A stretch of 64,000 nucleotides of DNA from Cyanophora paradoxa CCMP329 (GCA_004431415.1 QPMI01000291.1:12853-76852); one strand, 5' to 3'. Shown: positions 11,609 through 61,600, numbered from the stretch's first letter. Notes: generated by a model from the sequence alone, not told the origin. Numbers and translations: made by a program.

Positions 11609-11648
<40 letters not shown>

Positions 11649-38164: not shown

Positions 38165-38790
38165 CCCGGCAAGCGCTTGGGCTGCGGTGCGCCGCCGAGC
38201 TGCAGCTGTTTGCCAATTCAACGTGGGCGGCTCTCTATCACTCCCTGTGCTCTCTCTCGCGGCCGCTGGCTGCTCCGGTGCTGGACTCGCACGTCCGTGC
38301 CACGTCGGAGCGGTTGGGTACACTGACTGGCAGTCGCCTGTACCCCCAGGAGGACGCGAAGGTGCGCCGGCGCCGCGATCCGCGTATTTTTCGCCGGTAG
38401 GAAAGGATCTGCTTGGTAAAGAGACGCTATAGGACCTGCGAGAGTGGCCCGGCGCCGTTTTCGTCAGTTAGCATCTAAAACCCTTGACCAACGCCCCGCT
38501 AGCCGCCGTCGTCAGGTCGCCTTTTCGACGCCGGTCTCTCTAGCCGATCGATTCTTCCCTAGAGCGAGTCACCAGGCGACGTTCCCCACCAGCGTCAGTC
38601 CCGAGTTCGGAGCCCGACCAAAGGCGACCCAACCGGCCACCGGCACGCCTGGCGCCCTTCCGGCGCCCTTCTTAGCATCTTCCGAGATAGTCCCGTTCGT
38701 TTGGGGGCAAACCGTCGGGACGCGCCAAATCCCTTCAAATCCTCGGCGTGGCGCGCCCTCGTCGCCCGGCTGACCCTCGGGGCGGCGCAG

Positions 38791-42368: not shown

Positions 42369-44358
42369 TCAGTGGTGTGAGTGGAGGGCGCGGTGGCCGA
42401 GCCAGACGGCGGCGCCGACGAGGACGGCACCGCCGAGGGCGTTGCCGAGGGAGGACCAGAGGAGGTTGTGGGCGAGGCCCGCCGCGGTGATCGCCCCGCC
42501 CGCCAGCATCCCCGCCGGCAGCGTGAACATGTTCTGCCGGCGCGCGCGAGGGCGCGAGGGCGTACGCGTGAGGCTTCGTTCGCGCTTGATAACGCTAGGC
42601 CCTACTGCGAGGCCGGGGGGGGGGGGGGGGGGGGGGGGGCGCACGGCGACGGAGTGCTCGAAGCCGAGGAAGACGAAGGAGCAGACGGGGAGCCAGATCG
42701 TCGCCGCCTGCGCCGCGGCCGGGGAGGGAGCCCGTGAGGCGCGCACCCTGGGGGCGGGCCGGCCGAGGGCGGCGCTAGGCGTCGCTTCCTTGCTCCCCCC
42801 GATCGCTTGCCTACGCCTAGACGAGGGCGGGGAAGCGGGGGGGCGGGGGCGGGCCTTGGAGATCATGTCGCGCGAGGCGAGCGAGCCGTACGTCGCCGTG
42901 CACACCAGCCAGTTCGCCAGGATCCCCTGCGAAGAGAAGAGAACGCGCGCATCGGATCGCTGAGGAGAAGCTTGAGAAAGAAGAGGGGTACGGGACCTTG
43001 AAGAAGATGCGGGAGGCCGGCTGGAGGGCCTTCGCCTCCGCCACGTGCGCGAAGGCGTGGCCCACCGGGCCCGGCGCGAACATCCCCGCCGCGTTGCTGG
43101 GAGGGGGGTCAGGAGGAGGGGGCGGGGGCGAGGGAGGGGGAGGGTGGAGGGGGGTACGGGAGGTTACCAGAGCATCGCCATGAGGGCCGCGCCGACGAAG
43201 TTGCCGCACCACGAGACCGCCTGCGCGCGCGCGAGGTACCGCATCAGAAGGGGGATGGGGGAAGGAGGCGCGCGGGGGGTACGGGCGCGCCCAGCTGCGG
43301 GCAAGGTGGACCCAGGTGGTCTTCCCCTCGAGCGTCGACGTCGTCATGTACATCGTGTTCGTCGTGAACCTGGGTACAGAATAAGAAAGGAAAAGAAAAG
43401 GAAAGGGGGGTACGCGCACATCTCGACGCCGTAGACGAGGACGAGGAAGAGGCCGAAGGGGAAGAGGAGGGCGGAGATGGCCTTGGCGAGGCCGTACGAA
43501 AAGTCCGCGTCCGCGTGCGTCAGGTGGCCGAAGATCTGAAGAGAAGAGGAGCTCGGGTCAGCAGGGCAGGAGAAGTAGGTCTCTTGTTGAGAGAGGAGGC
43601 GCGCTGCGCGTGCTCACCGCAAGATTGAGTGTCATTGCGACGGCCTGCGCGGGGGCGGGAGGGCGGGCGGGCGGGAGGCGCTCAGGGAACGGGGAGGAGG
43701 CGGTGGAGGAGGGGGATGAGAAGAAGGGCAGGGGCGGGGGCGGACCACGAAAGCGCCTGCCATCATCGAGAGAACGAAGACTGCGGCGATGGGCGGGCGG
43801 GGCGGGTAGCACGCGTCGGGTCGGGCGGGCGGGCAGGGGGATAGCCGGGCAAGCGCCGGCACCTCGCCAGTTGGGCATCTTGCTCTTCTTGACGCCGGCC
43901 TCGACCGCGTAGTTAAACATGTCCACGCCTGTGCGTACGCGCTTGCGTGAGCGGTGGGCGAGCCTCCCAGCTAGCCCCGTCGCGAGTCCCGCCCCCGGCG
44001 GGCTAGCTGTAGCGCGAGTGGCCTGCCCCTCACGGGCGAGCGCACCGATCGGGGTCTTTTGGACTACGGGAACCGGCTGGTTATCCGTCCTCGGGGCGCC
44101 AGTCAGAGGGTTCACGTTCGGCGCCGGCCCCTCCGCCTGGGCGACGAGGAAGGGCCGGGAGAGTGGCGGGAGAAGGGTCGCAGCGCCCACGAGCCTCCTG
44201 CAGCTGCCGAAGAACGCGCGCTCGGGTGCGATCGCAGCCCGCACGATGGCGTGCGCCCGTCGGGCATCGCGCGACACTTGCGCGGGCCGGATGGCCGCGC
44301 CCTGCTGGAGCTGGACTCGCGAGGCCACGCCCGAGGGAAGAGTGACGACGAACGCCAT
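42369..44358 (-). CDS. Plastid-targeted formate/nitrite transporter (FNT; NAR1/LCIA-like), multi-exon
   Basis: AVEAGVKK; MMAGAFV; LFPFGLFLVLVYGVE; SWCGNFVGA; GILANWLVC; IWLPVCSFVFLGFEHSVANMF; NLLWSSLGNALGG; N-terminal transit peptide starting MAFV. Confidence 0.9.
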
Positions 44359-45168
44359 CGAGCTGTATCAGCCGCACTGACAGCTTGCGCTAGCCTGGGG
44401 CTGACGTAGGCCTACTCGGGCGGGCTGCGGTCTCGCTAGCGGGCTCTAGATAGCTGCACGATGCTTCCCACGACGCCCTGACGCTGTGCCCGCGACAGAT
44501 CCCGACCTTGCCTCTTGCCGCTTACCGCGAACTTAGAGCACTTCGTTCGCAAATCGCGCTGTATCCCCCCGCCAGCGAAAGCCTTGAATTCGAAGCGTCG
44601 ACTCTCCGAACGCGCAAGCGGCGCAACATGTACGCGCATTCCGGCGCGTCGCGCGGCTTGCTCTCAGCTGCAGCGCTTAGCGCTAGCTCGCAAGCGGCGC
44701 AATATGTACGCCTATTCCGGCGCCGGCGCCCGGCGCGTCGCGCGGCTTGCTCTCGGCACTGCAAGCTTGAGCGCTAGCTCGCTCAAGATCTGCGCATGCG
44801 ATGCGCGCGCGCCGCGGCGCGTGGGCCCAGGCCGCGCCGGCCGCGCGCGGCCGGGGGCCTGCGTATATGCATATGGGTACGTACCCCGCGGTCGCAGCCG
44901 GATCTGTCGACCCGCGGCCGGTACCCCTCAGGGGTCACCTCAGGGACCTGTACCCCTAGCCGGGCCGGGCCAGGCCTTCTGCGCCCCTGTACCCTTCTGG
45001 TACCCGGCCCCGCTCCTGATCACACACCCCCTCCGCAGGGGCCGGCGCCAAGAATAAGTATCTCTCTCATATAGAGAGCGATCGAGACACGAGGGAGGAA
45101 GGGGCAGGGGGCCAGCCGGCGCCTTCTGACGATCACGGGTCGTACCTGGAGTCGCCCCAGCGGACGCG

Positions 45169-45437
45169 AGTGGAGTATTACGCCATGGCTACATAAACGA
45201 AAAATCCCGAAATAATACAAATACATTCGAATTCCCCACGATATTCAGTAATACATACTTTTCATCGATAAATTCAATCGAGATATTCCCACTGACTCAC
45301 TGATATCATCAATCATTTCATTAACCCCCTGACGATATTCAGTAACAAAAACAAAAAACTCACGCCATGGCTACAATTACATCTTTATCATCTTTATCGT
45401 ATTTCATTTCCATTTCCCACTTATCGTTTTACTTCTC
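45169..45437 (+). repeat. Left terminal inverted repeat (269 bp)
   Basis: AGTGGAGTATTACGCCATGG...TTATCGTTTTACTTCTC is the reverse complement of 56371-56639; no mismatch noticed by eye. Confidence 0.97.
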
Positions 45438-45725
45438 TTGCTTCTTTTTAGCTAATTTTCTTTGTAGTCTATCTCTCACAGATCCTTTAAAAGTTACATT
45501 TCCTTTATCACCAGGATCATTACTAAGTATCAAATTTTGGAATTCGAGTTTTAAAGATTGTAGCATCGATGGTCTTATTTCATTTACTGCATTGTAACCG
45601 AGTGTGTGTTGTAAGAACTCTTTAAAAAACTCATCAAACTTTTCCATTGTTCTATTTTCTTCTTTTTCAAGAAATTGAAACGTATATCGGCAAGCATCCT
45701 TTGCTTTGATACCTTGCGATGCCAT
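45429..45725 (-). CDS. Viral hypothetical protein (98 aa)
   Basis: ATG-started ORF with element-like composition and an upstream AAAAAATGA..ATTTAA motif; stop lies inside the left TIR. Confidence 0.65.
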   Translation of the reverse strand: MASQGIKAKDACRYTFQFLEKEENRTMEKFDEFFKEFLQHTLGYNAVNEIRPSMLQSLKLEFQNLILSNDPGDKGNVTFKGSVRDRLQRKLAKKKQEK

Positions 45726-45999
45726 CGTTACAACTACTTCTAATATCTGGTTTTAAATCTCATCATTTTTTGCACCTTCGCCAATAGCATATATACCCGT
45801 ATATATACATCAGAACCTCCGTATATACCATCCCCGACAACTTCTGATTTTTTCATTTTTTTTACTTTTTCGCATATGACGACATATACATATATACATC
45901 AGCGTCACCGACATATTCGGGGTCATCACATCGCGGCGAGTCCGAAAACATATAGCATGCCACAAAGTAGTATTTTTTGCAATCCGACCAATAACAGTG

Positions 46000-46275
46000 A
46001 GGTTATCATAGTTCTTCCCGGGTTATCATAGTTTTTCCCCCATTGTAACCGGACTTGCCCCCCCCATTGTAACCGACTTGCCCCCCATTGTAACCAACTT
46101 GCTCCCCCTTGTAACCAATCGATACCCGGTTGATATTTGTTTGTCGAAAACAAAAAACCAAAAAAACGCAAAAACACCGGACAAAAAACGACCTTTGTGG
46201 ACACCGGGGATACCGGGTTTGTGGACACCGGGGATACCGGGTTTGTGGACACCGGGGATACCAGTTTTGTGGTTA
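46000..46275. repeat. Cluster of short tandem repeats in the viral non-coding region
   Basis: GGTTATCATAGTT x2; CCCC(A/C)TTGTAACC x4 (~46037-46116); 24-bp TTTGTGGACACCGGGGATACC(G/A)G x3 (46194-46265). Confidence 0.9.
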
Positions 46276-46481
46276 TTTTGTGGACAAAATGCAAAAAAAC
46301 TAAAAAACAAACAAAAACGAAAAACGCGAAAAGACGAAGAAAACGGTTCCGAAAAACTACAAAAACTCGAAAAACAATCGAAACCGCCACGCAAACCGTC
46401 AAACCGCTGTATCTTTTCACCAACTCATCGCCTTGCAAAAACAAAAATAGCGCCGGAATGCTCTCAAAAAGCGCTACAAGG

Positions 46482-47249
46482 CTACATCGTAACCGTAGTG
46501 CCCTCGCGCTGTATGCGAGCCAACCGTTCCTTCTTTTGCAGTGCCCGCCTCTTGCCGAACTTCCGAGTCATCTTTTTCAAGTCGTCTTCCGATAGAATCG
46601 CCCGGTCTGTGTAAAACTTAACGTCGTAGCCTTGCAGACCCACGCAGACCACCTGATAACTATGACCCCATAGCCTATTCAATTCCTTAAAGTCTCTCTT
46701 ACTGAGACCACCATTATATTCATCAAAAGCACAGTTAAACTCTTTTTCGTTCCCTAATATATTAAAGAAGACCACGAATTCGAGGTTGCGCCTAATTGTA
46801 GTGCTTACTGAGCACATGCGTTGTGAATTCACGATGAGGGATATCATATAATGGCGTCCAGAGGTTACCAGCTTTTTCAAGACCATATTCGTCTCCATAT
46901 TTAGCGAGGATCCAATCATGTCATCTAATATCAAAACTAAGCTGTTCTTTCTCTCTCCCTTTTCGATTCGTTTCTTTTGCATCCCGATGAGCTTCACCAC
47001 AAGGTCATCGTTCCATTCCTCAAAGATATTATCGGTGTGTGTGATGTCTTGCCATTGACCAGTGAATGCGGTTGAACTAAAAACCACGACCTGATTGATT
47101 TGGTCGCGAAGCTCATACAGTAAATATTTCGCAAACGTAGTCTTACCAGTGTTACTACGTCCCCAGCAACCGATTCTTGTTGGTAAAACTATGTTCCTTG
47201 CAGGATCCAACTCAGGTATTTCATCCAGATTTATGGTTTCCTTATCCAT
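46482..47249 (-). CDS. A32/FtsK-like genome packaging ATPase
   Basis: Walker A GRSNTGKT; Walker B LILDD; A32 motif GRHYMIS...NSQ...IRRN. Confidence 0.93.
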   Translation of the reverse strand: MDKETINLDEIPELDPARNIVLPTRIGCWGRSNTGKTTFAKYLLYELRDQINQVVVFSSTAFTGQWQDITHTDNIFEEWNDDLVVKLIGMQKKRIEKGERKNSLVLILDDMIGSSLNMETNMVLKKLVTSGRHYMISLIVNSQRMCSVSTTIRRNLEFVVFFNILGNEKEFNCAFDEYNGGLSKRDFKELNRLWGHSYQVVCVGLQGYDVKFYTDRAILSEDDLKKMTRKFGKRRALQKKERLARIQREGTTVTM

Positions 47250-47294
47250 TACAGTAAAGATATAAAAAAACAGACAAAACGCGACACGCTACGC

Positions 47295-48518
47295 TTAGAA
47301 GTTGCTTACTTTGAGGGTTGACAGTTGATAGCCATTGATTACGAGGACATTGTGGCGAAGTGTGAAGATATCCACCACAACCGGGTTCGCATCAGTGCAG
47401 CCGTTAACTGTGAGGTTCATGTAGCTTGATGACGAGTTGAAAAAGTCCTGATAACCGAGAACCGAGTTGTGCAGCGAATCCTTGCCGGACTTGCTCAGAA
47501 CAACACCATAAACGCTTCCCTCAGCGACTCCAACAGCGGCACCACCTGTGCTCGCACCCTTGTAGTGAGAGGGGATGTGGTTCACAGCGGAAAGGAAGCC
47601 CGAGATTGGCTTATTTGAAATATCGAGGGTGCGATTGTTGTGGTAAATCTCGAAGTTGGTGATGTTGTAGGTTTCGCCCTTGCCATAGAAGCGAGAGTGG
47701 TTAACCGTTTTCAGATCCGCGTTCTTTCGGACTGTAAGCAGAACCGAGTGGACAAGTCCGCTTACATTAGCAAGCGAGACCTCAGTCGCAGTGTCGGCAT
47801 CCGCCGTTTTCAGTGGGCGGGTTTGCTTGTGGAGAACCTCAGTAATTGGGATGCGAATGCCACCCTCCTCGTTTGCCATTTTAAGCAGTCGCTCCGCCTC
47901 ATCAGAGGAGATGTTAACGAACTGACAAACGAGATGGCAATCGCTCATAGCGATGGTAGCATTCTGAGCAAGTGTAACAACAGTCGAAGCCCGGAAATCG
48001 ACCTCGATTTGGGGCATCTCGGCAAGTGCACAGAGAGGGAAGTAAGAGTCGTCCCACATTTGCGATGGGATCTTAACAATAAATTCACGAGAAGTGTTGT
48101 TAAGAACAATAGCGGCATCGTCCATGCCATAGGACGTGGCAAGAGCGCCGAGAGTGGAGGCATCGTTATCGATGATGGAATTTACAGTGATCCAGTCACC
48201 GGGTAACGTGAGTTTAAAACCACCATGGACGATTCGGACATTTTCAATGAAGCTACTCGCACAGTTTGGAAGGGTCGCATTGGCACCACCACCACCAGTG
48301 AGTTTAAAGTAGAGGGAGAGACCGCTGAGTAGCTGTTTGCGAGGGAGGTCAAAGACCGCAGTAGAAGCAAAGCCAAAGGTGTTGCCACGAGGCTTGACTG
48401 TTTCGATGAATGGCTTATATTTCGGGTTGGCGCCAATGACCAGACCAGGGGATAGATATAATTCGCTCGAATTGGGGGTGACGAGAAGCTCTTTAAGAGT
48501 GGTTCCAGCGAGCGCCAT
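47295..48518 (-). CDS. Double jelly-roll major capsid protein
   Basis: 407 aa, beta-rich; FGFASTAVFDLPRKQLLSGLSLYFKL, FIENVRIVHGG and YFPLCAL...IEVDFR resemble DJR MCP motifs; adjacent to the ATPase. Confidence 0.85.
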   Translation of the reverse strand: MALAGTTLKELLVTPNSSELYLSPGLVIGANPKYKPFIETVKPRGNTFGFASTAVFDLPRKQLLSGLSLYFKLTGGGGANATLPNCASSFIENVRIVHGGFKLTLPGDWITVNSIIDNDASTLGALATSYGMDDAAIVLNNTSREFIVKIPSQMWDDSYFPLCALAEMPQIEVDFRASTVVTLAQNATIAMSDCHLVCQFVNISSDEAERLLKMANEEGGIRIPITEVLHKQTRPLKTADADTATEVSLANVSGLVHSVLLTVRKNADLKTVNHSRFYGKGETYNITNFEIYHNNRTLDISNKPISGFLSAVNHIPSHYKGASTGGAAVGVAEGSVYGVVLSKSGKDSLHNSVLGYQDFFNSSSSYMNLTVNGCTDANPVVVDIFTLRHNVLVINGYQLSTLKVSNF

Positions 48519-48570
48519 TGTTTACTAATCGTGAACAAAATAATTTATACACGGATAGTAACGAACACAA

Positions 48571-49467
48571 ATGGGAAAAATACTAATCAATATCGATTCC
48601 AGGGATCGCGAAGCTGATTCTACCAGTTCCGCGAATTTCCGCTATAAACTTCCCTATCCTGTGAAGCGAGTCAAATCTTGCAGGATCACGAATTTCGAGC
48701 TATTTAATAATCTATACAACCTAACCGAAGATGGAAGCATTACCACAGTCACCTACGATAACATCAGTGCCCAGAAGACCCGGACAAACACCTTTAAAGC
48801 CGGAAACTACGACCCCACGAGCCTCGTTAATTACCTAAACGTTCTGATTGGCACACAGCAGTATGCGCAGAATGGAGGAGGAACCTACACCCGCAAATTC
48901 AAAGTGTTCTACGACTCAAACACCATGAAACTGAGGATCCTTTCGAATGAGGCGTTCGGTCTCCGGTTTGCCTCGCTTCCAGTGGCAAACTTTACAGGAT
49001 TCCAGGTCGCTGACAAACTGTATTTAGGTGCAGTGTTGGCAGTGAACGAAACGTATGATGCACTCGTTTACACACACGAATTATATTCGGAGGTTCCCCT
49101 CGACCTTCTTTATTACTCATACATGTTGCTCCACATTGAGCAGCTACGAGGCACTGTGATCAGTCGCAACCCATCCGATTGCTACGCAATTGCAAAGATC
49201 ATTCTCGACCAGCAAGTCGGAGCCCTGTTAAAATACGAGGGTTCCAATGCGACTATGGTAGCATCTGACATGATCGACCGAGAGCTTGAATACCTCGACA
49301 TCGCACTGAAATACTATAATGGGATTCAGGTCACCTTGCACAGCGATTGGAGCATGACGCTCGAAATCGTCACTGACGATGGTGGGAACAGAAACAAGAA
49401 AGACCTCAAAGCTATATTTGCCGATTTACAGGATCACCTCCTCCCATTCGATAGGTCATTTTCGTAA
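48571..49467 (+). CDS. Minor capsid (penton, single jelly-roll) protein
   Basis: N-terminal INIDSRDR...NFRYKLPYPVKRV...FNNLYNL and C-terminal LDIALKYYNG...DWSMTLEI match the penton-family pattern. Confidence 0.8.
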   Translation: MGKILINIDSRDREADSTSSANFRYKLPYPVKRVKSCRITNFELFNNLYNLTEDGSITTVTYDNISAQKTRTNTFKAGNYDPTSLVNYLNVLIGTQQYAQNGGGTYTRKFKVFYDSNTMKLRILSNEAFGLRFASLPVANFTGFQVADKLYLGAVLAVNETYDALVYTHELYSEVPLDLLYYSYMLLHIEQLRGTVISRNPSDCYAIAKIILDQQVGALLKYEGSNATMVASDMIDRELEYLDIALKYYNGIQVTLHSDWSMTLEIVTDDGGNRNKKDLKAIFADLQDHLLPFDRSFS

Positions 49468-49496
49468 ATTAATATCGCACCCTAAATTAAGAATCA

Positions 49497-50279
49497 ATGC
49501 CGCGTCAAGCTACCACCAAACCACGCAAAACCAAACCGAAAGATTACCTCAGCACGCCAGCAAGTTTGGCAGACGTGGATACACCCACTAAATTTGGAAG
49601 AGGCAAAGCAGACAAAGCCAAAGCAGTGTATCACGTTGGTGATATTGAGCGTGATGTCCACTCTTCGCGAAACGAGTTCATTCAAGGACAGATCAGTGAT
49701 CGAAACGATGCGAACGCTCTGATTGACGAAGTCCCGCTGAATAAGATGCCCGGTAACAAGAGAGGACGAAAGAAGGGAACGATCATAAATTCGACAAAGG
49801 AACGAATCGCTTCAAAGAAAGTATTACTGAAAGAGCTCGATATCGGCAACGTGTATTCGGTGCAGACAGGCGATCGCTACCGCTATTATCTTGCGAAGCC
49901 AGGCAAGGGCATATCCAGTCTCACACGAGCCAGTGCGAAAGAATTGGTGGAAGGCATTGCCAAAGAGACGAAGCTCGAAAACCAAATCATGGAGCAAAAG
50001 ATCACAAAGGAAAAGGTGGACGAGAAACCAGTGGTTGCATCGGAAGTACTTGCTGATCCAATTGCGCCAGCAATCAGTGCCACACCCGATCAGTTAATTG
50101 CGAAAACGATCGCACTACAAGACACCAACACCGCCACCAATCTCCCGATCGCAAACAAGCACATCCTGAAAATCGCCGCCTCGACAAGCGAGCCGCTTAA
50201 CTCCATTCCCCGTGTGTCCCAGCCATTTATTAGCGGATTCGCAAAGCTCGGATTAAAGCCAGGTTACAGGAGGCTCTGA
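49497..50279 (+). CDS. Viral hypothetical basic protein (260 aa), possible virion core/DNA-binding protein
   Basis: Intact K/R-rich ORF 29 bp downstream of the penton gene; no recognised motif. Confidence 0.7.
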   Translation: MPRQATTKPRKTKPKDYLSTPASLADVDTPTKFGRGKADKAKAVYHVGDIERDVHSSRNEFIQGQISDRNDANALIDEVPLNKMPGNKRGRKKGTIINSTKERIASKKVLLKELDIGNVYSVQTGDRYRYYLAKPGKGISSLTRASAKELVEGIAKETKLENQIMEQKITKEKVDEKPVVASEVLADPIAPAISATPDQLIAKTIALQDTNTATNLPIANKHILKIAASTSEPLNSIPRVSQPFISGFAKLGLKPGYRRL

Positions 50280-50595
50280 GCCGACCTTAATATTTTCTCG
50301 CCCAATAGTAGCGCTACGTAACAAGAACCTATCTCGTAGTGAGTGCTCGCGCATTTTATCCTTTTTTCGTAGGATCCATGTGCATTTCGCTTTCAACACC
50401 TGTTCTACCGGGTTCATTGGTAGTAACTTGGGCGCCCCCGACAAGTCAGCCCGCATCGGGCATCGGGGGCAGCGCTTATTTTTGTAGCTTCTACCGGTTG
50501 TAGGGGTCAAAAATTGATTACGTTCTGAAAAAAGGTATATCAAAGAAGAAAATCATTTAAAGATTTCTTGCTATATAGTAGCAGAGGTTGAGAGA

Positions 50596-50850
50596 ATGAC
50601 GACAAGTGCGGCTCAGAAGCGTGCAAATGCTAATTACCGGGCTACCGGGAAAGGCAAAATTGCGCTCCAAAAGAACAAGGAGAAAATGCGAAAAAAGGTT
50701 TACGAGCTTTATCAATCTGATGATTGCTATCGCTCGATGAAAATCGTTCAAGCAAGTCACCGTGCGTATTCCAACAATGCGATTTGTTTCGTGAAATTCT
50801 TGTTTGGCGTTCCCTATAATAATGTCGGTCGCCCATCTAAGTATATCTAA
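50596..50850 (+). CDS. Small basic viral protein (84 aa), putative DNA-binding
   Basis: MTTSAAQKRANANYR... basic helical ORF preceded by AAAATTGA and ATTTAAAG..TATATA motifs. Confidence 0.6.
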   Translation: MTTSAAQKRANANYRATGKGKIALQKNKEKMRKKVYELYQSDDCYRSMKIVQASHRAYSNNAICFVKFLFGVPYNNVGRPSKYI

Positions 50851-51056
50851 ATCCTTTTTCTCGGCGCGATTGAAGCTGAGGAAACGAATGCGCAACCGCG
50901 CTAAATAAAAATTGCTTTCGTGTTATTTTTCGAGCTTGTTTATCGAGCCAACCCTTTTGTTATTTTTGTGAAATTTCCGTCGGGCAAAAAATGACGCAGA
51001 ACTGAAAAAATGATTTAAGGATAATTTTCTTTGGATATATATAAGAACGCAACGAG

Positions 51057-54000
51057 ATGCCTCGCCCTTCCAACCGGTTGATCAGAAAGCTTAATGAAGA
51101 CACTATTGGTTACACTACTATGAGTCTTGTTCATGGATTGATGACAACAGAGCAAGCTAACCTTATTCTCAATGCGATAGCCAGGCGAATTACGTTAAAA
51201 ACGGCAAAAGATTGGAATGACACAGCAAAGGGAATTTACGAGAATAACCTTACAAAGCGCGAGGTGGGGGATGAGTTCCAAAGATTGGGTGCTATCGACG
51301 TTCCCCAGGAACTAACAGACCAGCGCCCGCAACGCAACACCAAGACACATATTAGCCGGTTCCAGAAGCTGATGAAAAATCTAAAAGAGAAAATCGAGAA
51401 TTTAGAGGGCGACACTGTGACTATGTATTTTCGTATGTATCGGTTGATTGTGACAAAAGCCCCCAAAAACGGAAGGGTTGTGGAAGAATGGGGTGACAGA
51501 TACTACCAAGTTCTCAAAGACAGAAAAGACGGTTCATTCCATTCGGTTAAATTGAAGAAAGACCTTTTCATAAAATCCCTCGATCTTGTGAACAGACCAT
51601 TTACCAATGTCCCATGTTTCGAAAAAAAAGCAATCCAACAATTCATTTTCGAAAACATGCAGTTTGGTAATAGAAACCCAGACTTAATCTATTTGAAAAA
51701 CGTTCACACAGGCACTTACAGTGATGTCCTGACAATCGAGAAGATAAGACCTGAGAACGATAACGACTTTATCCCCAGGATCGACCAGATCTTACGAGAC
51801 TATCAAGCGCCTATGATCCCATCTAAGTATCTTACTTACGAATTTGATGTTAACTCAAAGTCATTCAGTGATTTCTTTGATAAAACGAAGAACAAGGAAT
51901 TGAGAATTAAATCATGTGTGCATGATGCTATCATTGCTGTGTTTGCACCAGCGTTTGAAAAAGCCAAAGATTATGGGCGCTACGTTTCTATCAAGCTGAA
52001 TCATGCCTTCTTGTTCAAATTGGTGCATGGTCGGGATCCAGTTGATGGGGACGATATGGGATTATCATTACGACAAATTACCGATGCATTTCTGAAGCCA
52101 TACAAGCTTTCTATGATAGTAGTAGACGAGAATGATAAAGTGGACTATGCCCTATCCTATATTCCTGTGGATGCAAACGGAAAGAGAACGAGGAACAAAT
52201 TCCTCCGACCATCCACCATGTATGTAAAAGTGCAAAATGGACACATGTATTTGCTCAATAATAATGTTGAGAGCCTCATCCAATCTTTCAATGGATCTAA
52301 GCCTACTGAGAAAGATATGCCGTTGGGTTGCAGATACAGGCTAAGAAGAAACGATAACAACAGTGGTAGTTTTTTCGCAGCCAATGAGGATCATATTGTA
52401 GGTATTCTCCAATCAGATGAGGCAACAAAAAAGAACCTTATCCGCATCAACTACGGTGGTGCAGGTGGTCTCACTAAATTGTATGCTTCCTTCCTGACAG
52501 TGCATAATTACATAGCTGATGCCAGAATTTCGGTTCTCGGATCCATCCAAAGCATAAGGTTCAAGTATCAGAACAAGGATGTCATCATTATACCTGTGTG
52601 CCCAGAAGTCGAAGTTGAGACAGCTTACCACTTGCAGTTCGAGAACTCAGAGCAGCGGGATGCATTCACCAAATATAATAACATGTTCTACGAAGCATTA
52701 ATTAACAGATCCTTGAAGAGTTCCTACAACGAAAACACACGAAATGCTTTCGTGGTTGGTTCTCAAAGTGCCTTAAATGGTCGCTTTGAAGATTCCGCCG
52801 AAATCATTAAGGATTTGAATGATGGGTGCCTAAAAGTGTTCGAACACGATGGGTGCAAAGCGTATGCAGGTCATGTTAATTCATTTGAGTATTTCCCGGT
52901 ATTTAGCGAATTCGATGACTTTAAGGATGTGTCCATACAATCAGTTGCCGATGTGGAACCTTACAGCTTCTACTACGTGACTTTGAAGAAAGGACAATAC
53001 CTTATTAAGAAGGACTCTAGTGGAAAGGAGTGGGTGCAATATAGATATCCCAAAGCAAAGCGAATTCTCATAGATTCACCATGTAACCTGATCCCAGGGA
53101 TCATGCTCAAAGAATATTTCGATGACCTGATAGACATAATCGATGTAAAATACATCTTAAAACCATATCGAATTGTCAAGAACGTTGTTAAATATGTTAT
53201 CAAACAGATCTTAGAGAGCAACCTTAGCGAAACTGAGAAGAAGCAGATTCTTGTAAGTATTATTGGAATGCTCGGGAAACAAAAGAATCAGAGATCGCGA
53301 ACCAAACCGTTTTTCCTAAAATCGGATGCTATCGAGTTTGCCAGAAAGCATGGTGGCGACGTCAAATTACTGTGGCTCGGTGAGAAGAAGCCCAATCAAT
53401 CCACAGAAGCCAAAACCGAATCTCAAATCAAAGTCTCAAACTATGAAAAATGGATTCAAGCTTATGAAGAACGAAAACAAAAGAAAAATCAGGTTAAACC
53501 CGAAATTGAAGAAGAACATGCAATTGAAGATTACGAAAACCCCGATCGCATTGTTGCAGCTGAGGAGATAACAGACCCACACATTTGGTATGTGGAGAAA
53601 ATAGAAGAAAGGCTACTAAAAGATGGATTCCTTCCGATCCAAAATATGGTCTATTCAAAACAACGAATGGATCTGTATAAGAAGTGCAGGGAATCAAAGG
53701 GTGTCATTATGGCTCTTAAAGTTGATGCAGTCTATGAGGCAATCGACGAAAGCTTAGATGTAGAAGAAGTTAAATTCGATCGCACGAAGTATGAGAATAT
53801 CGGATGTTTCAGCACGAAACCTATATCTTTCAATGAGTATTGCAATAAGATCTTACAGAAGAAGCACGAGACTAAGAGGACAAATGGAATGATCCGATTT
53901 TTCAAGCCGGAGAGACTGAGGGATTTCGTTACTGTGAGAAAGAATGATTGCACAGCATACACGGTTCCCGATGAATTTGACACGAAAGCGATATGTGATA

Positions 54001-55337
54001 TGATGCTCTCCAAAGGGAAAGGCATAAGAATTGAGGGAAATGCCCCAGGAACCGGAAAGTCGTATGTGAGCAAGGCGATCGGTGCCAAATTCGACAGTTG
54101 CTTATATATCACGCCCACTAACAAGCGTGTCAAAGAAATGAAAGTCGAAGATGGTTTGGAGAATGTGATGACCATTCATGGTGCGTTCAATCTGAAAATC
54201 GATGATTCCCAAATGGACGATGTTGTGGGTGCGAATGCAAGCAAGATTGCACCTTATCAATGCATTGTTATGGATGAAGGCTACCAGCTTAGCATACCAC
54301 AGCTTGCAGCACTGAAACACATGATGAAAGTCGCCTACCCTGACAAGACCTACATTCTGAATGGTGACCCGTTGCAAAATCCACCTATTCAGTTCCTTAG
54401 TGTGGATCAGAAGGAATATTATAACGAGATCTTTGAGCAGCTCTTCCCGAGCTTGTTAGAGTTGCATGTGAATAAGCGCCACATTTTGCCAGAAGATCGC
54501 GAAAAGATTCTCGAATGGAAGCAAGATTTATTCGAAAAGAACATGGACATATCCGCATTCCTTGCAAAGCATAACATACCTGTTATTTCGCCTGATCAGT
54601 TGCGACCTGACGATAGAGCTATTACTTACACAAACCGCAAAGCAGCACAGGTTAATGCTATGATCCACCGCATTAAGTATGGTATAGATACGCCAACTCA
54701 TTTTAAAGGGCTCGAAATTATAGCAAAGCAGCGCCTGACGAAAGGGAAGACGGCAGATGACGAGAGTGTAATCATCCATAATGGATTCTCGTATATCATC
54801 GAGGATCTGAACGAAACCACGCTTACGATTTCAGACTACGCAGATGAAAGCATTAAAATAACGCTTCCATACGATTCAATCAAGCATTTCACGCTTCCCT
54901 ATGCTAATACGTGTCACGTTGTGCAAGGTGACACGGTAAAAAATAAGCGGGTGGTTGTTTTCGAGGCGCAATCGCCCCACGTCACCAAATATTGGTTGTG
55001 GGTCGCACTGACCAGGACACCATATTTGAAGGACACCGTGATTTGTGTGGATGAAAGCGAGATCTATGATATGGGCGCTTTCAAATCAAGAATGCATAGA
55101 CTGATTCAAGGTTATAAACATCAAGACAAGGTTGCAGGTCGCGATTTCGTCGAATCTATGTATGTTACTTATCCATGGATAAAGCAAAGATTCGGAATTC
55201 AGAATGGGCTTTGTTGGCGATGCTACCAAATTATGGATTACGATGAGGTCTCGGTTGACCGCGAAAACAATGCGGTCGCTCATGTTATCGGTAATATTTC
55301 CCTCTCTCATATTAAGTGTAACTGTGCGGCTCAGTGA
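51057..55337 (+). CDS. 1426-aa replication fusion protein: putative OTU-like protease + divergent family-B DNA polymerase core + SF1 (RecD/Pif1-like) helicase + HNH nuclease
   Basis: SF1 motifs GNAPGTGKS (K1001), ITPTN, TIH, MDE (D1073), GDPLQNPP, NKRH, YANTCHVVQG, VALTR. PolB-like motifs HDGCKAY (D598), KQILVSIIGMLG (K729), KVDAV (D890). SCV (C287)...GHMY (H396). C-terminal CWRC...SVDRENN..AHVIGN...KCN. Confidence 0.88.
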   Translation: MPRPSNRLIRKLNEDTIGYTTMSLVHGLMTTEQANLILNAIARRITLKTAKDWNDTAKGIYENNLTKREVGDEFQRLGAIDVPQELTDQRPQRNTKTHISRFQKLMKNLKEKIENLEGDTVTMYFRMYRLIVTKAPKNGRVVEEWGDRYYQVLKDRKDGSFHSVKLKKDLFIKSLDLVNRPFTNVPCFEKKAIQQFIFENMQFGNRNPDLIYLKNVHTGTYSDVLTIEKIRPENDNDFIPRIDQILRDYQAPMIPSKYLTYEFDVNSKSFSDFFDKTKNKELRIKSCVHDAIIAVFAPAFEKAKDYGRYVSIKLNHAFLFKLVHGRDPVDGDDMGLSLRQITDAFLKPYKLSMIVVDENDKVDYALSYIPVDANGKRTRNKFLRPSTMYVKVQNGHMYLLNNNVESLIQSFNGSKPTEKDMPLGCRYRLRRNDNNSGSFFAANEDHIVGILQSDEATKKNLIRINYGGAGGLTKLYASFLTVHNYIADARISVLGSIQSIRFKYQNKDVIIIPVCPEVEVETAYHLQFENSEQRDAFTKYNNMFYEALINRSLKSSYNENTRNAFVVGSQSALNGRFEDSAEIIKDLNDGCLKVFEHDGCKAYAGHVNSFEYFPVFSEFDDFKDVSIQSVADVEPYSFYYVTLKKGQYLIKKDSSGKEWVQYRYPKAKRILIDSPCNLIPGIMLKEYFDDLIDIIDVKYILKPYRIVKNVVKYVIKQILESNLSETEKKQILVSIIGMLGKQKNQRSRTKPFFLKSDAIEFARKHGGDVKLLWLGEKKPNQSTEAKTESQIKVSNYEKWIQAYEERKQKKNQVKPEIEEEHAIEDYENPDRIVAAEEITDPHIWYVEKIEERLLKDGFLPIQNMVYSKQRMDLYKKCRESKGVIMALKVDAVYEAIDESLDVEEVKFDRTKYENIGCFSTKPISFNEYCNKILQKKHETKRTNGMIRFFKPERLRDFVTVRKNDCTAYTVPDEFDTKAICDMMLSKGKGIRIEGNAPGTGKSYVSKAIGAKFDSCLYITPTNKRVKEMKVEDGLENVMTIHGAFNLKIDDSQMDDVVGANASKIAPYQCIVMDEGYQLSIPQLAALKHMMKVAYPDKTYILNGDPLQNPPIQFLSVDQKEYYNEIFEQLFPSLLELHVNKRHILPEDREKILEWKQDLFEKNMDISAFLAKHNIPVISPDQLRPDDRAITYTNRKAAQVNAMIHRIKYGIDTPTHFKGLEIIAKQRLTKGKTADDESVIIHNGFSYIIEDLNETTLTISDYADESIKITLPYDSIKHFTLPYANTCHVVQGDTVKNKRVVVFEAQSPHVTKYWLWVALTRTPYLKDTVICVDESEIYDMGAFKSRMHRLIQGYKHQDKVAGRDFVESMYVTYPWIKQRFGIQNGLCWRCYQIMDYDEVSVDRENNAVAHVIGNISLSHIKCNCAAQ

Positions 55338-56404
55338 TGGATACAGTGTTATCATACAAGAAATACATGCAGAAACTAATTAATGAAGGTGTAAGTTTTG
55401 ACGAGGCGAAACTAAAAAAACAGTTCGAGAACTCGGAACTACAACAGATTTTCAAGAAACCAAAAAGACCAAAGAGCTTTTTACGCATTGTAGCGAGACC
55501 CCGATCATTTCAAGTAGACATTATGTTTTTTAGAGGATTTCAAACAGCGAATAGAGGCATTGGTAAGGCGCTTAGTTTCATTGAGATTTTGAGCAGGAGA
55601 GCATTCGTTTATCCTTTCAAAGAGTCTTCCGAAATTCAGGGCATTTTAGATAGGTTTAAGCAGGATGCCGGGAAAGTTGTAGGATTGGCAGGAGATAATG
55701 AGTTTTCACAGAGAGTTTATCGTGAATGGTGCAGCGCAAATGGTGTGGAACTCTACACAGATGTAGCAAAAGACGACCACATTTCGGTAGGCAACAAGTT
55801 AGGTATCATAGATAGATTTACGAGGACTTTTAAGCAGTATCTGAGAAAGGCAATGATTGCAAAGGGAAGCTCGAAATGGCTCGATTTAGTAAAGGAAGTT
55901 TTAGACACATACAACAGTTCCCCACATTCCTCTTTGAAAAACGACACACCAAACAATGTATATAATAGTGACCACAAGCAGCTATATATTTACTTGCGGG
56001 ATTCAGTGCATAACGACCAAGTGAAAGATACTGAACAAGTTGATGTGAAACAAGGCGACACTGTTCGGGTGTTGGAGCCCAAAGGGATATTTGATAAAGA
56101 AGGTGCAAGGTTTAGCAAGAAAGTATATACAATTGGTGCAAAAGATAACAATAGGTTCAAAGTATTAGAAAATATGGATGGAGAAGTAAAGGAAGTTAAG
56201 AGACGTTTTAAAAAGAACGAGTTACAGAAAGTGAGTAAGGCTGATGTTATTAAGATTCCTGATCAAAAGAGGATTATAAGAGTTGCGAAAACGAATGAAG
56301 TAAATCGCAAATTAGCGAAAGAAGGGATCAAGCCGAATCGAAAGAATGTTGTAAGGAAGAAGTATAATCTGAGAAGTAAAACGATAAGTGGGAAATGGAA
56401 ATGA
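55337..56404 (+). CDS. Retroviral-like (rve) integrase, Polinton type
   Basis: FQVDIMF (D61), IEILSRRAFVYP, GDNEF (D120), GIIDRFTRTFK (D159), W...V...YNSSPHSSLK..P, SH3-like GDTVRV...FDK...FSKKVYTI. ATG at 55337 overlaps the upstream TGA. Confidence 0.93.
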   Translation: MDTVLSYKKYMQKLINEGVSFDEAKLKKQFENSELQQIFKKPKRPKSFLRIVARPRSFQVDIMFFRGFQTANRGIGKALSFIEILSRRAFVYPFKESSEIQGILDRFKQDAGKVVGLAGDNEFSQRVYREWCSANGVELYTDVAKDDHISVGNKLGIIDRFTRTFKQYLRKAMIAKGSSKWLDLVKEVLDTYNSSPHSSLKNDTPNNVYNSDHKQLYIYLRDSVHNDQVKDTEQVDVKQGDTVRVLEPKGIFDKEGARFSKKVYTIGAKDNNRFKVLENMDGEVKEVKRRFKKNELQKVSKADVIKIPDQKRIIRVAKTNEVNRKLAKEGIKPNRKNVVRKKYNLRSKTISGKWK

Positions 56405-56639
56405 AATACGATAAAGATGATAAAGATGTAATTGTAGCCATGGCGTGAGTTTTTTGTTTTTGTTACTGAATATCGTCAGGGGGTTAATGAAATGATTGAT
56501 GATATCAGTGAGTCAGTGGGAATATCTCGATTGAATTTATCGATGAAAAGTATGTATTACTGAATATCGTGGGGAATTCGAATGTATTTGTATTATTTCG
56601 GGATTTTTCGTTTATGTAGCCATGGCGTAATACTCCACT
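56371..56639 (-). repeat. Right terminal inverted repeat (269 bp)
   Basis: GAGAAGTAAAACGATAAG...CCATGGCGTAATACTCCACT. Confidence 0.97.
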
Positions 56640-58509
56640 GACGCGGGCGGCGGGCAGGGCCCTCGCGACGCCCTCCTCCGCCGCCCGCCCGAACGCCTCG
56701 TACCCGCTGACCTCCCCCTCCTCCGTGTTCGTTGTGGGGTCCACCAGCCGGACCTGCGCGAGCCGCCCTCATCAGGCCCAGAAATCTGAAGAAGTCTTGA
56801 ACAGAAGAGAAGAAGCTGCCTCGAGGTCCTCCGTGTAGCAGTTGGAGAAGACGCCCAAGTCGCGAAGGCGGTCGTTGGCCGCGGAGTAGGCGTGGACCAA
56901 GACGGAGAGGGCGAGCGCCCGGGGCGGGGCGGCGGCGAGGGCGGCGGCCGCCTCGGCGGGCGCGGGGCGGCCCGGGGCGATGTCGAGGCGGAGCTCGAGG
57001 TCCAGTCGGCCCCCCGCGGCCGCCCGCGCGAGGGCCGCCAGCTCCGGGAGCTCGGCGGACGACGGCTGCGAATCTGAGGCGGCGCGCTCGGAATTGCAGC
57101 GGCCAGGACGCGGGGAGAGGGGGAGAGGGGTACGGAGGTAGAGGCGCAGGGCGAGCTTCGGTGAGCGCTCGAGGGCCGTCCTCAGGCCGGCCAGGTGGCC
57201 GCCCAGGTCGACGGGGTACAGCTGGAGCGGCCCGAAGCTCCGGAGGGCGGGGCAGGCCCCCAGCCCCGCCAGCAGCTCATCCCCGGAAACGCCGCGCTGC
57301 ACCTGCGCGCGCCTCGGCGGTTCGAATCCGGCCGGTGCCAAAAGAGGAGAGGTGGTACCGTGAAGGGCCCGCTCAGGCGCTCGAGGGCGGCGAGCTTCGG
57401 CAGGGCGCGCAGGGCCTCGCTCGAGAGCTCCGCGCTGCAGTGCAGCCTGCGAATTCAAATTTTGAATTCAGTTTGAATTCAAAAAGAGGTCAAAGCTTAA
57501 GGACGCACTCGCGGAGGGAGCGGGCGGCGGGCCCGGCGGCGAGGGCGGCCAGGAGCGGCGTGGCGTCCTGTGCGCCGCACCGGACCTCCAGGCGCCCCAG
57601 CGAGCCGAGGGAGGCGAGGGGCTCGGCCGCCTCGTAGTCCCACACGTTCATCCGCAGCTGCGCGCCGGCGCGTTCACGATCAGAGATACACGGAGAAGTT
57701 TGCAGGCTGACCTGCTTGAGCCGCGGAAGGCATCGGACGAGGACGGCGGCGGGCTGGGGGCTGCCGGAGCAGCTGCAGCAGGCGGGGAGCTCCAGCCTCT
57801 CCAAGTTGGGGAAGGGGCGCAGGATGCCCTCCAGCTCGGCGCCGGCGGGCAGCCGCTGGCACTCGAAGGAGAGATCACCTCGGAACACGATGCTGCGGAG
57901 GGCGCCGCCCGACGCCGGCGCCGGCGCCGGCGCGCCGCCCGCGGCCGACGCCGGCGGGGCCAGGGCGCGTAGCAGCTCGCCGAGGCACGAGCGCGAGGAG
58001 CGGCTGCAGTACAGGTCGACTTCGCTGAGGCCGCCGCTCGCCGACGCGCACGCGGAGACGAGGGCGAGGGCGGCGCCCCAGGGCGTCCCCGGCTGGCTCC
58101 GCAGGTACCGCCGGGCGGGGTCGCCCTTGTGCTCCAGGCGCAGCGAAGCGCCTGCGCCGATGCGGATCCATCGCCGAACCGAGCCCGCGCCCCCGCCCTG
58201 AGCCGCAGCCTCAGCGGGACCTCCTATCATCACTGCCGCGAGCTGATCCACGCGCTCCTGGCGCGGCACGACGAGGTGCACGCTGCTCCATTGCACCGAC
58301 TCGATCGCCTGGCGCCACCGGCGGCACACGGCGCGTGCCGCTGCCGCCTCCAGAAGGCCGAGCCGCTCGAAGATCAGGCCGAGGACCGCGTCCGGCAGCT
58401 GAAGTCCGTCCGCCGAGTCCGCGCTGGTGAAGCTCGTGCTTGCTTGTCTGTTCGCATCAATACCCTTAGGCCTGTCCGCCCTTGTGTGCGTCCCGCTCCT
58501 GCCTCCCAT
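56640..58509 (-). CDS. Host F-box/LRR-like protein, multi-exon, last exon interrupted by the viral insertion
   Basis: F-box motif LQLPDAVLGLIFERL...ARAVCRRWR; LRR-like FPNLERLEL, LPRLKQVSL, CPALRSF; exon starting at 56753 runs in frame into the TSD. Start Met at 58509 is a guess. Confidence 0.75.
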
Positions 58510-58650
58510 CAGAATTTGCACTTCGTTCGCAATTTCGAATTCGCGCAGTATCCCCCCGCGGCGCCGGCGGCCGGCCGGCCGAGCGCTCCCGTGGGCGTCG
58601 ACGTCGTCGACGCTCGCAGATCGGAGTCGTTCCAGGCGCGCGATGGTGCG

Positions 58651-61600
58651 ATGGACGTCAAGGCGCTCCACAACTCGTTCCTGAGCCGGCACCGCGCCGA
58701 GCTCCAGAGGGCGGCTGCGGCGCATTTGTCCACATTCAGCCAGGATAACGGACGCCACGAGCGCAAGGCGGGTGACGCCACGCCCAGGGCGCGCTTCGGC
58801 GCTGTCGCGGCCTTGGAGCGCCTGCAGCGCGTCAGTCTCTGCGACCTGCGGCCCGGGACCGCGGTGGGAAGCTTCATCCGCGGTCGTCTCGTTGTCGAGC
58901 CTTTCATCCAGGCGCGCGCGCTCCAGCTCACAGCCCGAGCGCTTTCAAATTCGAGTTCGATCTCACGCGCCGCTGCAGGCCGGGCTCGTGACGGTTTTCG
59001 AGGACGCGGAGACTGGCGAGTGCCAGCGTCTCTCCGTGTACAACGCGGGGCGGGCGGCGGCCGCGGACCAGGGGCAGCCTCGCGCGGACGCGGGCGAGCA
59101 GTACCACTGCCTCCTGCGGGCCTTCGCCGAGGGGCGCGAGATCGCCGTCCGCGAGCCTTTCCTTAAGGTGCAAAGGCCTCCCGGCTCCGTCCCGTCCTGC
59201 CGCGCGCGCGCGCTGACGCGTACGGTTTGATCTTCGCCGCTGCCGCCGCAGACGGCAAGCGACGGGCTCCCGCTCATCCGCGTGGACTCGCCGTCCGATG
59301 TCGTCTTCCTCGCAAGCAATGCGCCATCGCCGGCGCCTCGCTCGGACGGCGCCGCGGCCGCCGGTGCCAGTTGCGGCGGCGGCGCTGCGCAGGGCCCGAG
59401 CAGCAAGGGCGGGAGGGGGAAGAAGCCGTCGGCGCCGAGGGGGGCCGACCCGGAGACGGCGGAGGGCCTGAACGAGGCGGCGGGGCGGGCCTACGCGCGG
59501 GACGACTGGCCCGAGGCCGAGCGCCTCTACGGTCTCGCCATGGCCCGCGATCCGGCCTCGCCCAAGTACCCCTCCAACAGGCGCGCGCACCCGTACCGTT
59601 TCCACCGCGATCTCGATGCCGCCGGCGCCGGCGCCGGCGCCGCCGCTGATTGATGCATGAGCAGGGCGGCAGCGCGGCTGAAGATGGGGAGGTACGCAGA
59701 AGCGTTCGCGGACGCTTCGAAGGCCGCGAAGCTCGACCCCCGCTGGCACCGGCCGGTCCTCCGCAGGGGTGCGCCACGCCGGGCCGCCTACCCATCCCCC
59801 CTGGGCGCCCCCGCCCCCGCCCCCGCCGATCTCGCACCGCCGCAGCCGAGGCGCTGCGCGGCCAGAAGCTGCACGACCAGGCTGTACCCCTCTACGAGAA
59901 AGCGCTGTTCCTCCTCCCCAACAACGCCGCCGGCGCCTCGTGCGTACCCCTCTCTCCCCTTCCCCCCGTTCCCCTACCCCCCCGCCCCCCCGCTCCTCCC
60001 TCCCATCTCCCCTACCTCCCCCCCCGCTCCTCCCTCCCCCCCGCCCTTCCCCCCCCCCTCCCTCCCCTCCTCACCCCGCCCTTCCCCTATCTCTCCCCCC
60101 CCTCGCTTTCCCCCCTCCCCCGTCAGCCCCTCCCCCGGCCGGCCCCTCCCCCTCCCCCCCGCCCCTCCCCTCCCCTCCCCCTCCTTCCCGCCAGCCCCTC
60201 CCCCGGCCGGTCCCCCCCCCCCCCCCCCCCCCGCCCCTCTTCTCCTCCGCCTCCCCCCCTTCCCCTCCTCCCTTTCCTATATTCGGCCTGGCACAGGGGC
60301 CCAGAGCTCACGCCCGCCGCAGGGAGGCGTCGCTGGCGGCGGACCGCGCGGAGGCCGAGAAGGGCCTCCACGCCTGCCGCGCCGCCCTCTCCCGCGCCGT
60401 GCGCCCCCGCCGCCGATCCCCGCCACGGGCGCCGGCGCTGACGAGGACGCTGCCCCGCAGGCGGTGCGGATGCAGGACTCGGAGGGCTCCCTGCAGCGCG
60501 TGGCGCGGCGCCGCGCCGCCGACTTCGCCGCCCGCTTGCCCGCGATCACGAGGCGGGGGCTGCCCCGCCCGCCCGCCCGCTCCGCCCGCCCCCCCGCGCC
60601 GCTCCTGACGGGCGGACGTGGCCAGGGCGCTGGAGGAGGGCACGGCGGAGCAGCGGCGGCTCTTCGAGCTGGTGCGGGAGTCCGAGGCGGAGCTGCTGAG
60701 GTCGCGGGCGGCGCGGGACGCGGGCGACATCGCCCGCCAGCTCGTCATCCTCCGCAGGGCCGCCGGGGCGCGCCCGCCCGCCCGCCGTCGATCCCGAAGC
60801 TGAAGAAACGAGCTGAGCGAGCGCAGGCGGGGAGCGCGGCGGCGATGAACGAGCTGTGGGTGACGCTCAGCGGGGGCCAGGGCGCCGCGCCGGGCACCCC
60901 GCTCGACTTCGAGGAGGCCCACCGCTGGCTCCGGGCCCGCCCTCCGCTTACGTACGGGCCCAGCGCTCACTCGAGCTGATCCCCGCTTCCCACAGGAAGC
61001 GGTGGAGAAGCCGGTCTGGGTCGTACCCGGCCTCATGTCGAACCCCGGCGTGGCCGAGGCGCTCAACGCGACGGGCGTGAGCCTGCGCGACGGCATCGGC
61101 CGCCCCGCCGACCCCGCCGCCGCCGCCGCCTGGTTCCGCCGCGCCGCCGAGACCGGTCCGACCCTCCTCCTCCTCCATTCCCCCCTTGTTTCTCTCATCC
61201 GCTTCGTGCAGGGACGGGCGACCCGGGCCACCTCTGCGCCCTCTGCAACATCGGCTTCGCGCTCTCCAACGGCGTCGGCGGTGCGCCGCCCGCTTTCCCC
61301 CCACAGCAGCGGCGAAGCTCTAAGCTTAAGCACCCTCTCAGTTGCGAAGGACCCCGCGGAGGCGGCCCGCTTCCTCCGCATCGGCGCCGAGGAGTGGGAG
61401 TACGCCCCGGCCCAGGCGCGCCCGCCCCGCTCGCGATCGCGCCTCGGCCTCTGTCCGCGGCCGACCTTGAATCCGGATCGTCGAAGATGGGGCTCGGCGA
61501 CCTCTACGCGCAAGGAGCGGGCGTCCCGCAGGACTGGGCCCGCGCCAGGCAAGTCTCCTACCCCTCTTAACTTCTGGAAGCTTCGTCTCTTGCTGCTGAA

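Follow-up and report, generated by a model that had tools for sequence, protein, structure and literature searches.

An endogenous Polinton-like virus of Tlr1-type organization in the glaucophyte Cyanophora paradoxa and its possible dependence on a giant virus

Polinton-like viruses (PLVs) of the Tlr1 type combine an rve integrase with a large protein in which a family B DNA polymerase of the protein-primed kind is fused to a superfamily 1 helicase (pPolB-S1H), and carry no protease (PMC5499653, PMC11161782, PMC12721341; statements drawn from published work refer throughout to the sections, tables and search listings consulted). PLVs of glaucophytes have already been counted. Table S6 of PMC12220804 tallies 156 glaucophyte elements, of which 139 have an A32 ATPase, 85 an rve integrase, 34 a superfamily 1 (SF1) helicase and none a protease. 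In Table S4 of Bellas 2023 (PMC10120064) the Tlr cluster is separate from the two glaucophyte clusters of the major capsid protein (MCP), which are unnamed, marked 'new', MMPC 21 and 29 by column count, and contain 272 + 94 = 366 genes. Here we describe one element within a 64,000-nucleotide stretch of DNA from Cyanophora paradoxa CCMP329 (GCA_004431415.1, QPMI01000291.1:12853-76852), referred to below as the window. The element almost certainly belongs to the PLV class, and it was very probably able to make virions at the time of insertion. The reading we prefer, to which we assign a probability of roughly 0.5, is that of an intact endogenous PLV which makes virions, replicates by protein priming and is switched on by a co-infecting giant virus.

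The element proper occupies 45169-56639 (11,471 bp), starting with AG and ending with CT; AG..CT ends are a hallmark of Polintons and Mavericks. The two arms of its terminal inverted repeat (TIR) are 100% complementary over 269 nt, and the bases just past the arms differ. The second-longest inverted pair within 44-58 kb, by comparison, measures 31 nt at 71%. A perfect inverted repeat of 269 nt together with a matching hexamer outside both arms, the target-site duplication (TSD) GACGCG, is far beyond chance. GC content is 0.425 in the element against 0.692 (35169-45168) and 0.753 (56640-64000) in the flanks. Eight open reading frames (ORFs) without internal stops make up 83% of the element and, as read from these open frames, its genes appear to be free of introns. 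The final 11 integrase codons lie inside the TIR (56371-56404; reverse complement at 45404-45437, the inner end of the left TIR), and the stop codon of ORF A falls within the left TIR. Coordinates and base composition thus bear out the AG...CT ends, matching 269-bp TIRs, TSD, eight uninterrupted ORFs and AT-rich island of the initial annotation, although its span of 45163..56645 takes in both TSD copies. Its description of the element as recently integrated holds in a relative sense only: identical TIRs, an intact TSD and the absence of stops support a recent insertion but give no date, and the CpG ratio (1.08 in the element, 1.08-1.14 in the host) is uninformative on age.

The 407-aa ORF is identified by its predicted structure as a double jelly-roll (DJR) MCP. 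No match was found in Pfam, PHROG or NCBIfam and a word-index protein search was also empty; an exhaustive search of 1.84 billion representatives returned five relatives at 22-26% identity in the alignment, one of them named from Cyanophora paradoxa. The model built with these relatives (pLDDT 67, pTM 0.74) matched the PBCV-1 capsid in Foldseek with E 1.4e-18 and TMq 0.67, so that the jelly-roll fold anticipated in the initial annotation is recovered, while the MCP of mavirus came only at rank 48 (TMq 0.51). A structure search of BFVD agrees with a DJR capsid (best E 2.7e-22), its best match, G8DDE2, being an unnamed entry without mention in the literature. Profile matches to the PBCV-1 and faustovirus MCPs were weak (E 0.004-0.06), and one MCP homolog matches Capsid_N (E 5e-5). 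The A32-like packaging ATPase matches Pfam Pox_A32 with E 6.5e-10 and 39.3 bits (cut-off 22.8). The 298-aa ORF is likely the penton, or minor capsid protein (mCP), given its position beside the MCP and Atlas features at 0.98 to unnamed viral clusters. Its recognition value of 2238 is under the 2300 mark, and the ORF is without a Pfam match or PDB sequence match. The MCP and likely penton genes stand head to head with 52 nt between their starts (48519-48570), a gap which implies one short two-way promoter. From its composition, the basic 260-aa protein is perhaps a DNA-binding core protein. NCBIfam matches of the penton and basic ORFs to beta-lactamases and NADH dehydrogenase were far under the cut-off and were dismissed. 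None of the eight ORFs matches a protease family in Pfam, PHROGs or NCBIfam, and an adenain/Ulp1 protease is therefore as absent from our searches as had been proposed.

The 1426-aa protein, termed the replicase here, reads in order as an N-terminal region, a vOTU-like domain, PolB-like motifs, an SF1B helicase (994-1320) and an HNH-like Zn tail (1386-1423); the same TP-vOTU-palm-S1H-HNH order is given in PMC11161782 and PMC5499653. That an SF1 helicase lies in the C-terminal half is shown by profile (Pfam AAA_19 E 1.8e-8, RecD2 E 1.5e-6) and by the presence of all main SF1B motifs. The vOTU-like, PolB-like and HNH-like domains have weaker evidence, as they are putative assignments made by motif against consensus patterns in general use. 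Cys287 and His396 of the vOTU-like domain are in fitting context upstream of the palm, with no profile match; the PolB-like motifs occur in the right order as D598, K729 with a degenerate motif B, and D890, a single Asp in motif C; and the tail has the pattern CxxC..DR..H..HxxCN, with no Pfam match. Word-index protein searches with the replicase, and with residues 560-960 (among shorter proteins), gave no matches. The 355-aa ORF is supported as a DDE integrase by weak profile matches (rve_3 E 1.8e-4, below the cut-off; IS481 family E 7.5e-6), by the candidate catalytic residues D61, D120 and D159, the last in place of the usual Glu, and by the 6-bp TSD; its start overlaps the replicase stop (TGATG). 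No family was found for the 98-aa and 84-aa ORFs in the databases searched. The earlier assignment of an endogenous PLV with a DJR MCP, an A32 ATPase and a DDE integrase is upheld by the fold model, by Pox_A32 and by rve_3/IS481 with the Asp motifs. Two other assignments stand in part: the PolB-SF1 fusion is sound on the helicase side by profile but has only motifs, motif B being degenerate, on the PolB side, and the penton has its Atlas similarity and location but falls short in recognition.

Put together, these genes would allow the following cycle. The RNA polymerase of a giant virus would read the early genes of the provirus, and the 1426-aa protein would act as a pPolB-S1H fusion priming at the TIR ends, as proposed from the Tlr1/transpoviron family (Krupovic 2024), and would be cut by its own vOTU-like domain. 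The linear genome would be copied by helicase-aided strand displacement, the ATPase would pack it into the DJR capsid, no maturation protease taking part, and the integrase would join its ends to host DNA with a 6-bp stagger.

The case for a helper comes from candidate promoter words. In the window there are five occurrences of AAAAWTGA, each on the sense strand and 45-135 nt before ORF A, the 84-aa ORF or the replicase, with none upstream of the remaining five element genes. In shuffled upstream regions of the eight genes 0.31 occurrences are expected, and 0 of 3000 shuffles reached five. A word of this type is described before the replication genes of the helper-dependent PLV PgVV and before the helicase of the pacmanvirus transpoviron. 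To judge from these words, a giant-virus RNA polymerase may read the replicase, ORF A and the 84-aa ORF as early genes. The element could instead be an autonomous temperate virus which host RNA polymerase II transcribes in the nucleus and which needs no helper, its trigger being stress or a loss of silencing. The TATATA-like words found 14-80 nt upstream of the same three genes would suit such a virus, as would low-depth contigs over the replicase and integrase in two presumed-RNA public runs (X19 and X20), a weak signal; X19 has no long contig over the capsid genes or host flanks, which is not evidence either way. A nuclear lytic PLV, TSV, has been isolated (10.64898/2026.06.19.733378), but three of its close relatives are strictly helper-dependent according to the same source, TATATA has also been named as the late promoter of pacmanvirus, and the placement of AAAAWTGA likewise speaks for a helper. 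Autonomy is thus a tenable account but a less probable one; provided that the element was virion-competent, helper dependence is the modestly favored state.

Sibling copies were examined in public runs. Among the 24 runs listed, 18 contain 0.73-0.76 of the sampled words; these 18 share a single species label and represent 14 named studies plus three rows without a study, and one may be the source of the window. Seven were compared with the window at contig level. In X18 these contigs lead from the TIR end into six distinct flanks, in X6 into five and in X1 into four. The flanks are compatible with about three insertions, having the TSDs GACGCG, GATCAT and GCTGGA as paired from mixed consensus lines. 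The ratio of TIR depth to flank depth, 5.8 in X6 and 4.5 in X18, is consistent with about three insertions, although depth cannot be equated with copy number. The TIR flanks offer no circular junction, since their letters do not fit one. At one sibling insertion the flank is AT-rich and reaches depth 37 in X1, compared with about 14 for host single-copy contigs, and that sibling may consequently sit in another multi-copy AT-rich element. Searches for the loci of relatives with the MCP, MCP halves, ATPase, integrase, replicase and a TIR word found none in viral contigs, although one of these searches counted two candidate relatives, and searches of metagenome, prokaryote-genome and phage-record loci likewise returned no relatives' loci.

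Differences between the window and sibling contigs (40 of 181 rows listed) bear on whether the capsid genes are in use. Of the listed differences 39 fall in the ATPase, MCP and mCP genes, and 38 of these 39, including all nine listed in the mCP, are synonymous, whereas the site count would predict 23% (P about 1e-23); the capsid module therefore was under purifying selection while the copies diverged. This constrains a second alternative, that of a self-synthesising transposon which spreads only within the genome and carries its capsid genes as intact passengers, with a polymerase that is maybe dead and copying left to the helicase and host polymerases. The degenerate state of motif B and the single Asp of motif C fit such an element; PMC5499653 read domains of this kind as inactive, and PMC11161782 argued that activity survives the absence of motif C's first Asp. 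The presence of only about three copies and no free form in the contigs fits it as well. Selection on the capsid genes until the copies diverged, and an MCP that is predicted to fold well, are not what passengers would show, and we consider this explanation improbable.

The two halves of the element differ from the sibling contigs to very unlike extents. Relative to the listed contigs of X1, X2 and X4, this copy differs by 1.5-2.2% across its capsid half and by 0-0.18% across the half coding for replicase and integrase (Fisher P 1e-8 to 3e-15, with the count limited to the longest of the listed pieces), and contigs diverge away at 50390 and 50430, between the capsid and replication halves. Recent module exchange among sibling viruses is the simplest reading, and Barth et al. 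(10.64898/2026.10.13.758929) describe module exchange across the group. The siblings appear to carry a different left end, with loose ends at 45856, 45866 and 56317; in one sibling the shared stretch apparently extends to 56317, so that TIR length differs among copies. Both TIRs of this copy share one base at mirror positions (45325/56483, each 156 nt from the end) which is unlike the majority TIR contig, a contrast seen in four of the six DNA or unlabelled runs covering the site (X1, X2, X6, X18). This common base points to copying between the two ends prior to insertion.

Unlike rates in the two halves are also what a blend of copies could give, and no listed contig covers the whole stretch, as would be expected if a viral contig or a blend of copies had been joined into host DNA during assembly. 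The junctions speak strongly against such a chimera. The TSD is exact at both ends and the host reading frame resumes across one TSD copy. In the presumed-RNA run X20, one spliced contig (depth 3.4) skips a host intron and bridges the right junction with 147 letters on the TIR side and 113 on the other. Contigs from DNA pass from host into TIR by 28-30 letters in X2, X6 and X18, under the 31-letter mark. The ends are safe, an artefact being possible only for the internal mosaic, and we judge a chimeric assembly to be highly improbable.

The same spliced contig, one of low depth, together with the reading frame, indicates that a transcribed host gene was hit by the virus in its last coding exon. 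With the element present, the host frame runs for 44 further codons into the TIR; across a single TSD copy it reaches a stop 9 codons later in the left flank. The interrupted gene is likely the F-box gene of Table 1, on the grounds of strand and position. The element would be a case of a PLV altering the C-terminus of a host protein. No dedicated description of PLV read-through from host genes turned up in the literature listings searched.

Several observations weigh against an intact PLV which depends on a giant virus and replicates by protein priming. With respect to the helper, AAAAWTGA is a post hoc widening of the mimivirus early motif AAAATTGA, of which there is one exact match; its count across the whole element (5) is near chance (3.4), only its placement being unusual; the TATATA-like words fit host RNA polymerase II equally well; and literature listings searched gave no giant virus of this host lineage. 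With respect to mobility, the contigs of X1, X6 and X18, which drop rare forms, contain neither an empty site nor an end-to-end junction. The penton call has weaker evidence than the MCP call, resting on Atlas similarity and position. The polymerase raises the most points. The usual PolB motif B contains Asn and Tyr, and both are absent from the replicase. The PolB domain has no Pfam match, DNA_pol_B_2 included, and no PDB sequence match; a single-sequence model of residues 381-1426 reached a pLDDT of 31; and the Atlas score of the replicase is 0.88, a lead only, with DNA_pol_B_2 on 11% of the members.

Table 1. Features of the element and of the interrupted host gene (positions in the window).
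Feature	Position	Strand	Basis
Displaced end of the interrupted host exon, final 9 codons plus stop	45133..45162	-	frame resumes across one TSD copy
Left TSD copy, GACGCG	45163..45168	.	
Left TIR, 269 bp, begins AG	45169..45437	+	
ORF A, 98 aa, no family	45429..45725	-	ORF
Two AAAAATGA words, candidate early promoter, at -45 and -135 of ORF A	45763..45860	-	
Internal tandem repeats, 21 bp x3.6 and 24 bp x3.3, long intergenic region	46037..46272	.	
Predicted A32-like packaging ATPase, 255 aa; Walker A at 30, Walker B at 106	46482..47249	-	Pfam Pox_A32
Predicted DJR MCP, 407 aa	47295..48518	-	fold model and Foldseek
Likely mCP (penton), 298 aa	48571..49467	+	Atlas, position beside MCP
Basic protein, 260 aa, no family	49497..50279	+	ORF
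Basic ORF, 84 aa, no family; exact AAAATTGA at -86	50596..50850	+	ORF
Putative replicase, 1426 aa; AAAAATGA at -70 and -51	51057..55337	+	helicase by profile, other domains by motif
Putative rve-type DDE integrase, 355 aa	55337..56404	+	Pfam rve_3, IS481, catalytic Asp motifs
Right TIR, 269 nt, ends CT	56371..56639	-	
Right TSD copy, GACGCG	56640..56645	.	
Interrupted last coding exon of host gene, 38 codons to TSD	56640..56753	-	spliced contig, frame
GC-AG intron, 66 nt	56754-56819	-	spliced out in one X20 contig
Host F-box gene, likely 5' part of interrupted gene	57490..58725	-	Pfam F-box E 3e-8

Elsewhere in the window, a 149-bp unit is repeated 6.4 times (3986-4941, within 3593-6729) and contains nested inverted copies; the stretch around it (3-11 kb) has a lower GC of 0.46-0.60. 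This repeat is likely a host repeat or a non-autonomous element; a second PLV at 3-11 kb was ruled out, there being no long ORFs, no blastn match and no resemblance to the element. The ORF at 43558-44358 (minus strand) has Phe at position 3 amid an Ala/Ser/Val-rich start, which resembles a cyanelle transit peptide (PMC4510345) and, with the MCP relatives, points to a likely glaucophyte host; at 11199-12353 (plus strand) a long Ser-Pro repeat (6-bp unit, about 116 copies) marks an extensin-like host gene.

The existence of the element is unsurprising, since endogenous PLVs are common in protists and its capsid family had already been counted. Its value is that of a clean test case: the ends are exact, the copies number about three, the genes are intact and the size is under the 14-40 kb usually quoted for PLVs (PMC10120064), one screen having taken contigs from 10 kb upward. 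It offers a handle on whether pPolB-S1H fusions are active polymerases, motif B being degenerate here, on giant-virus dependence in a lineage for which literature searches gave no giant virus described, and on the swapping of modules as it took place among siblings. A more ambitious description would be that of a minimal functional DJR virus of glaucophytes (eight genes, 11.5 kb) in an unnamed lineage, having an NCLDV-like MCP (NCLDV, nucleocytoplasmic large DNA virus), swapping modules and using giant-virus early promoters. We hold this full combination to be doubtful. If true, the element would be a ready bait for a not-yet-isolated glaucophyte giant virus and would be among the smallest complete integrating DJR viruses.

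Membership of the canonical Polintons, the virophages and the transpovirons was considered and failed in each case on the features tested. With canonical Polintons and Mavericks (Polintoviricetes) the element shares the rve integrase, the 6-bp TSD (PMC12220804), a DJR MCP and an ATPase. It differs from them in having no recognized Ulp1/adenain protease and no exonuclease-bearing stand-alone pPolB, its only large ORF being the helicase fusion, and in its size of 11.5 kb versus 15-40 kb (PMC7805220). As to virophages (Virophaviricetes), the low rank of the mavirus MCP and the lack of a protease match have been given above. Transpovirons of mimivirus and pacmanvirus (pltv) have TIRs, internal tandem repeats and a AAAATTGA-type word before the helicase, as here, and a pPolB-S1H protein of the kind putatively present here, whereas the present element has a full capsid module (MCP, ATPase) and is integrated in the host nucleus. 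The NCLDV-like PLVs (Zephyr, Zora, VC40; Bellas and Sommaruga 2026, 10.64898/2026.06.19.733378) resemble it in that MCP profile and fold match NCLDV capsids first, and Zephyr members include polB-SF1 fusions; no Mriya48, HUH or VLTF gene was recognized in our element, and glaucophytes are unmentioned in the text of that work as consulted. The NCLDV best matches do not place the MCP, because the PDB list holds no competing PLV capsid.

Closer still are the PLVs of C. paradoxa itself. Plainly close to this MCP are two entries of Table S2 of PMC10120064, gene_49165 and gene_58741; a count by eye gives 56 identities to gene_49165 among the first 72 residues. Peptides of the MCP itself were absent from the supplement rows examined, and P0002 (gene_47449 of the same table) is 26% identical over the matched stretches. 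At the clustering threshold of at least 25% identity over 30% of length, the MCP goes with the two glaucophyte MCP clusters of Bellas 2023. In view of these genes and of the 156 glaucophyte elements tallied, the suggestion of an undescribed algal lineage cannot be kept in its strong sense. The sections and tables of Bellas 2023 examined hold no description of the ends, TSD, size or gene order of the C. paradoxa group, and no dedicated paper on glaucophyte viruses turned up in the literature listings searched.

The element has the broad features of PLVs, namely a DJR MCP, an A32-like ATPase and a linear genome with TIRs, and, of those of the Tlr1 type, an SF1B helicase in the C-terminal half of a protein of the 1000-1400-aa class and an rve integrase. 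Like Tlr1 and the PLVs of Bigelowiella natans, it combines the rve integrase and a large protein having S1H and putative vOTU, palm and terminal nuclease regions with MCP, a likely mCP, A32 and TIRs, and no Ulp1 protease was recognized. It differs from Tlr1 of Tetrahymena, which has a GIY-YIG tail in place of the HNH-like tail found here and in PLVs; in addition, no Tlr 6F gene was recognized, the MCP appears to be of another family and there are only eight genes. A Tlr1-like rather than canonical Polinton affinity, as first proposed, agrees with this set of a putative pPolB-S1H-HNH protein and rve without a protease. The element would operate in the manner of a Tlr1-type PLV, and its capsid family is one that has been catalogued but not named.

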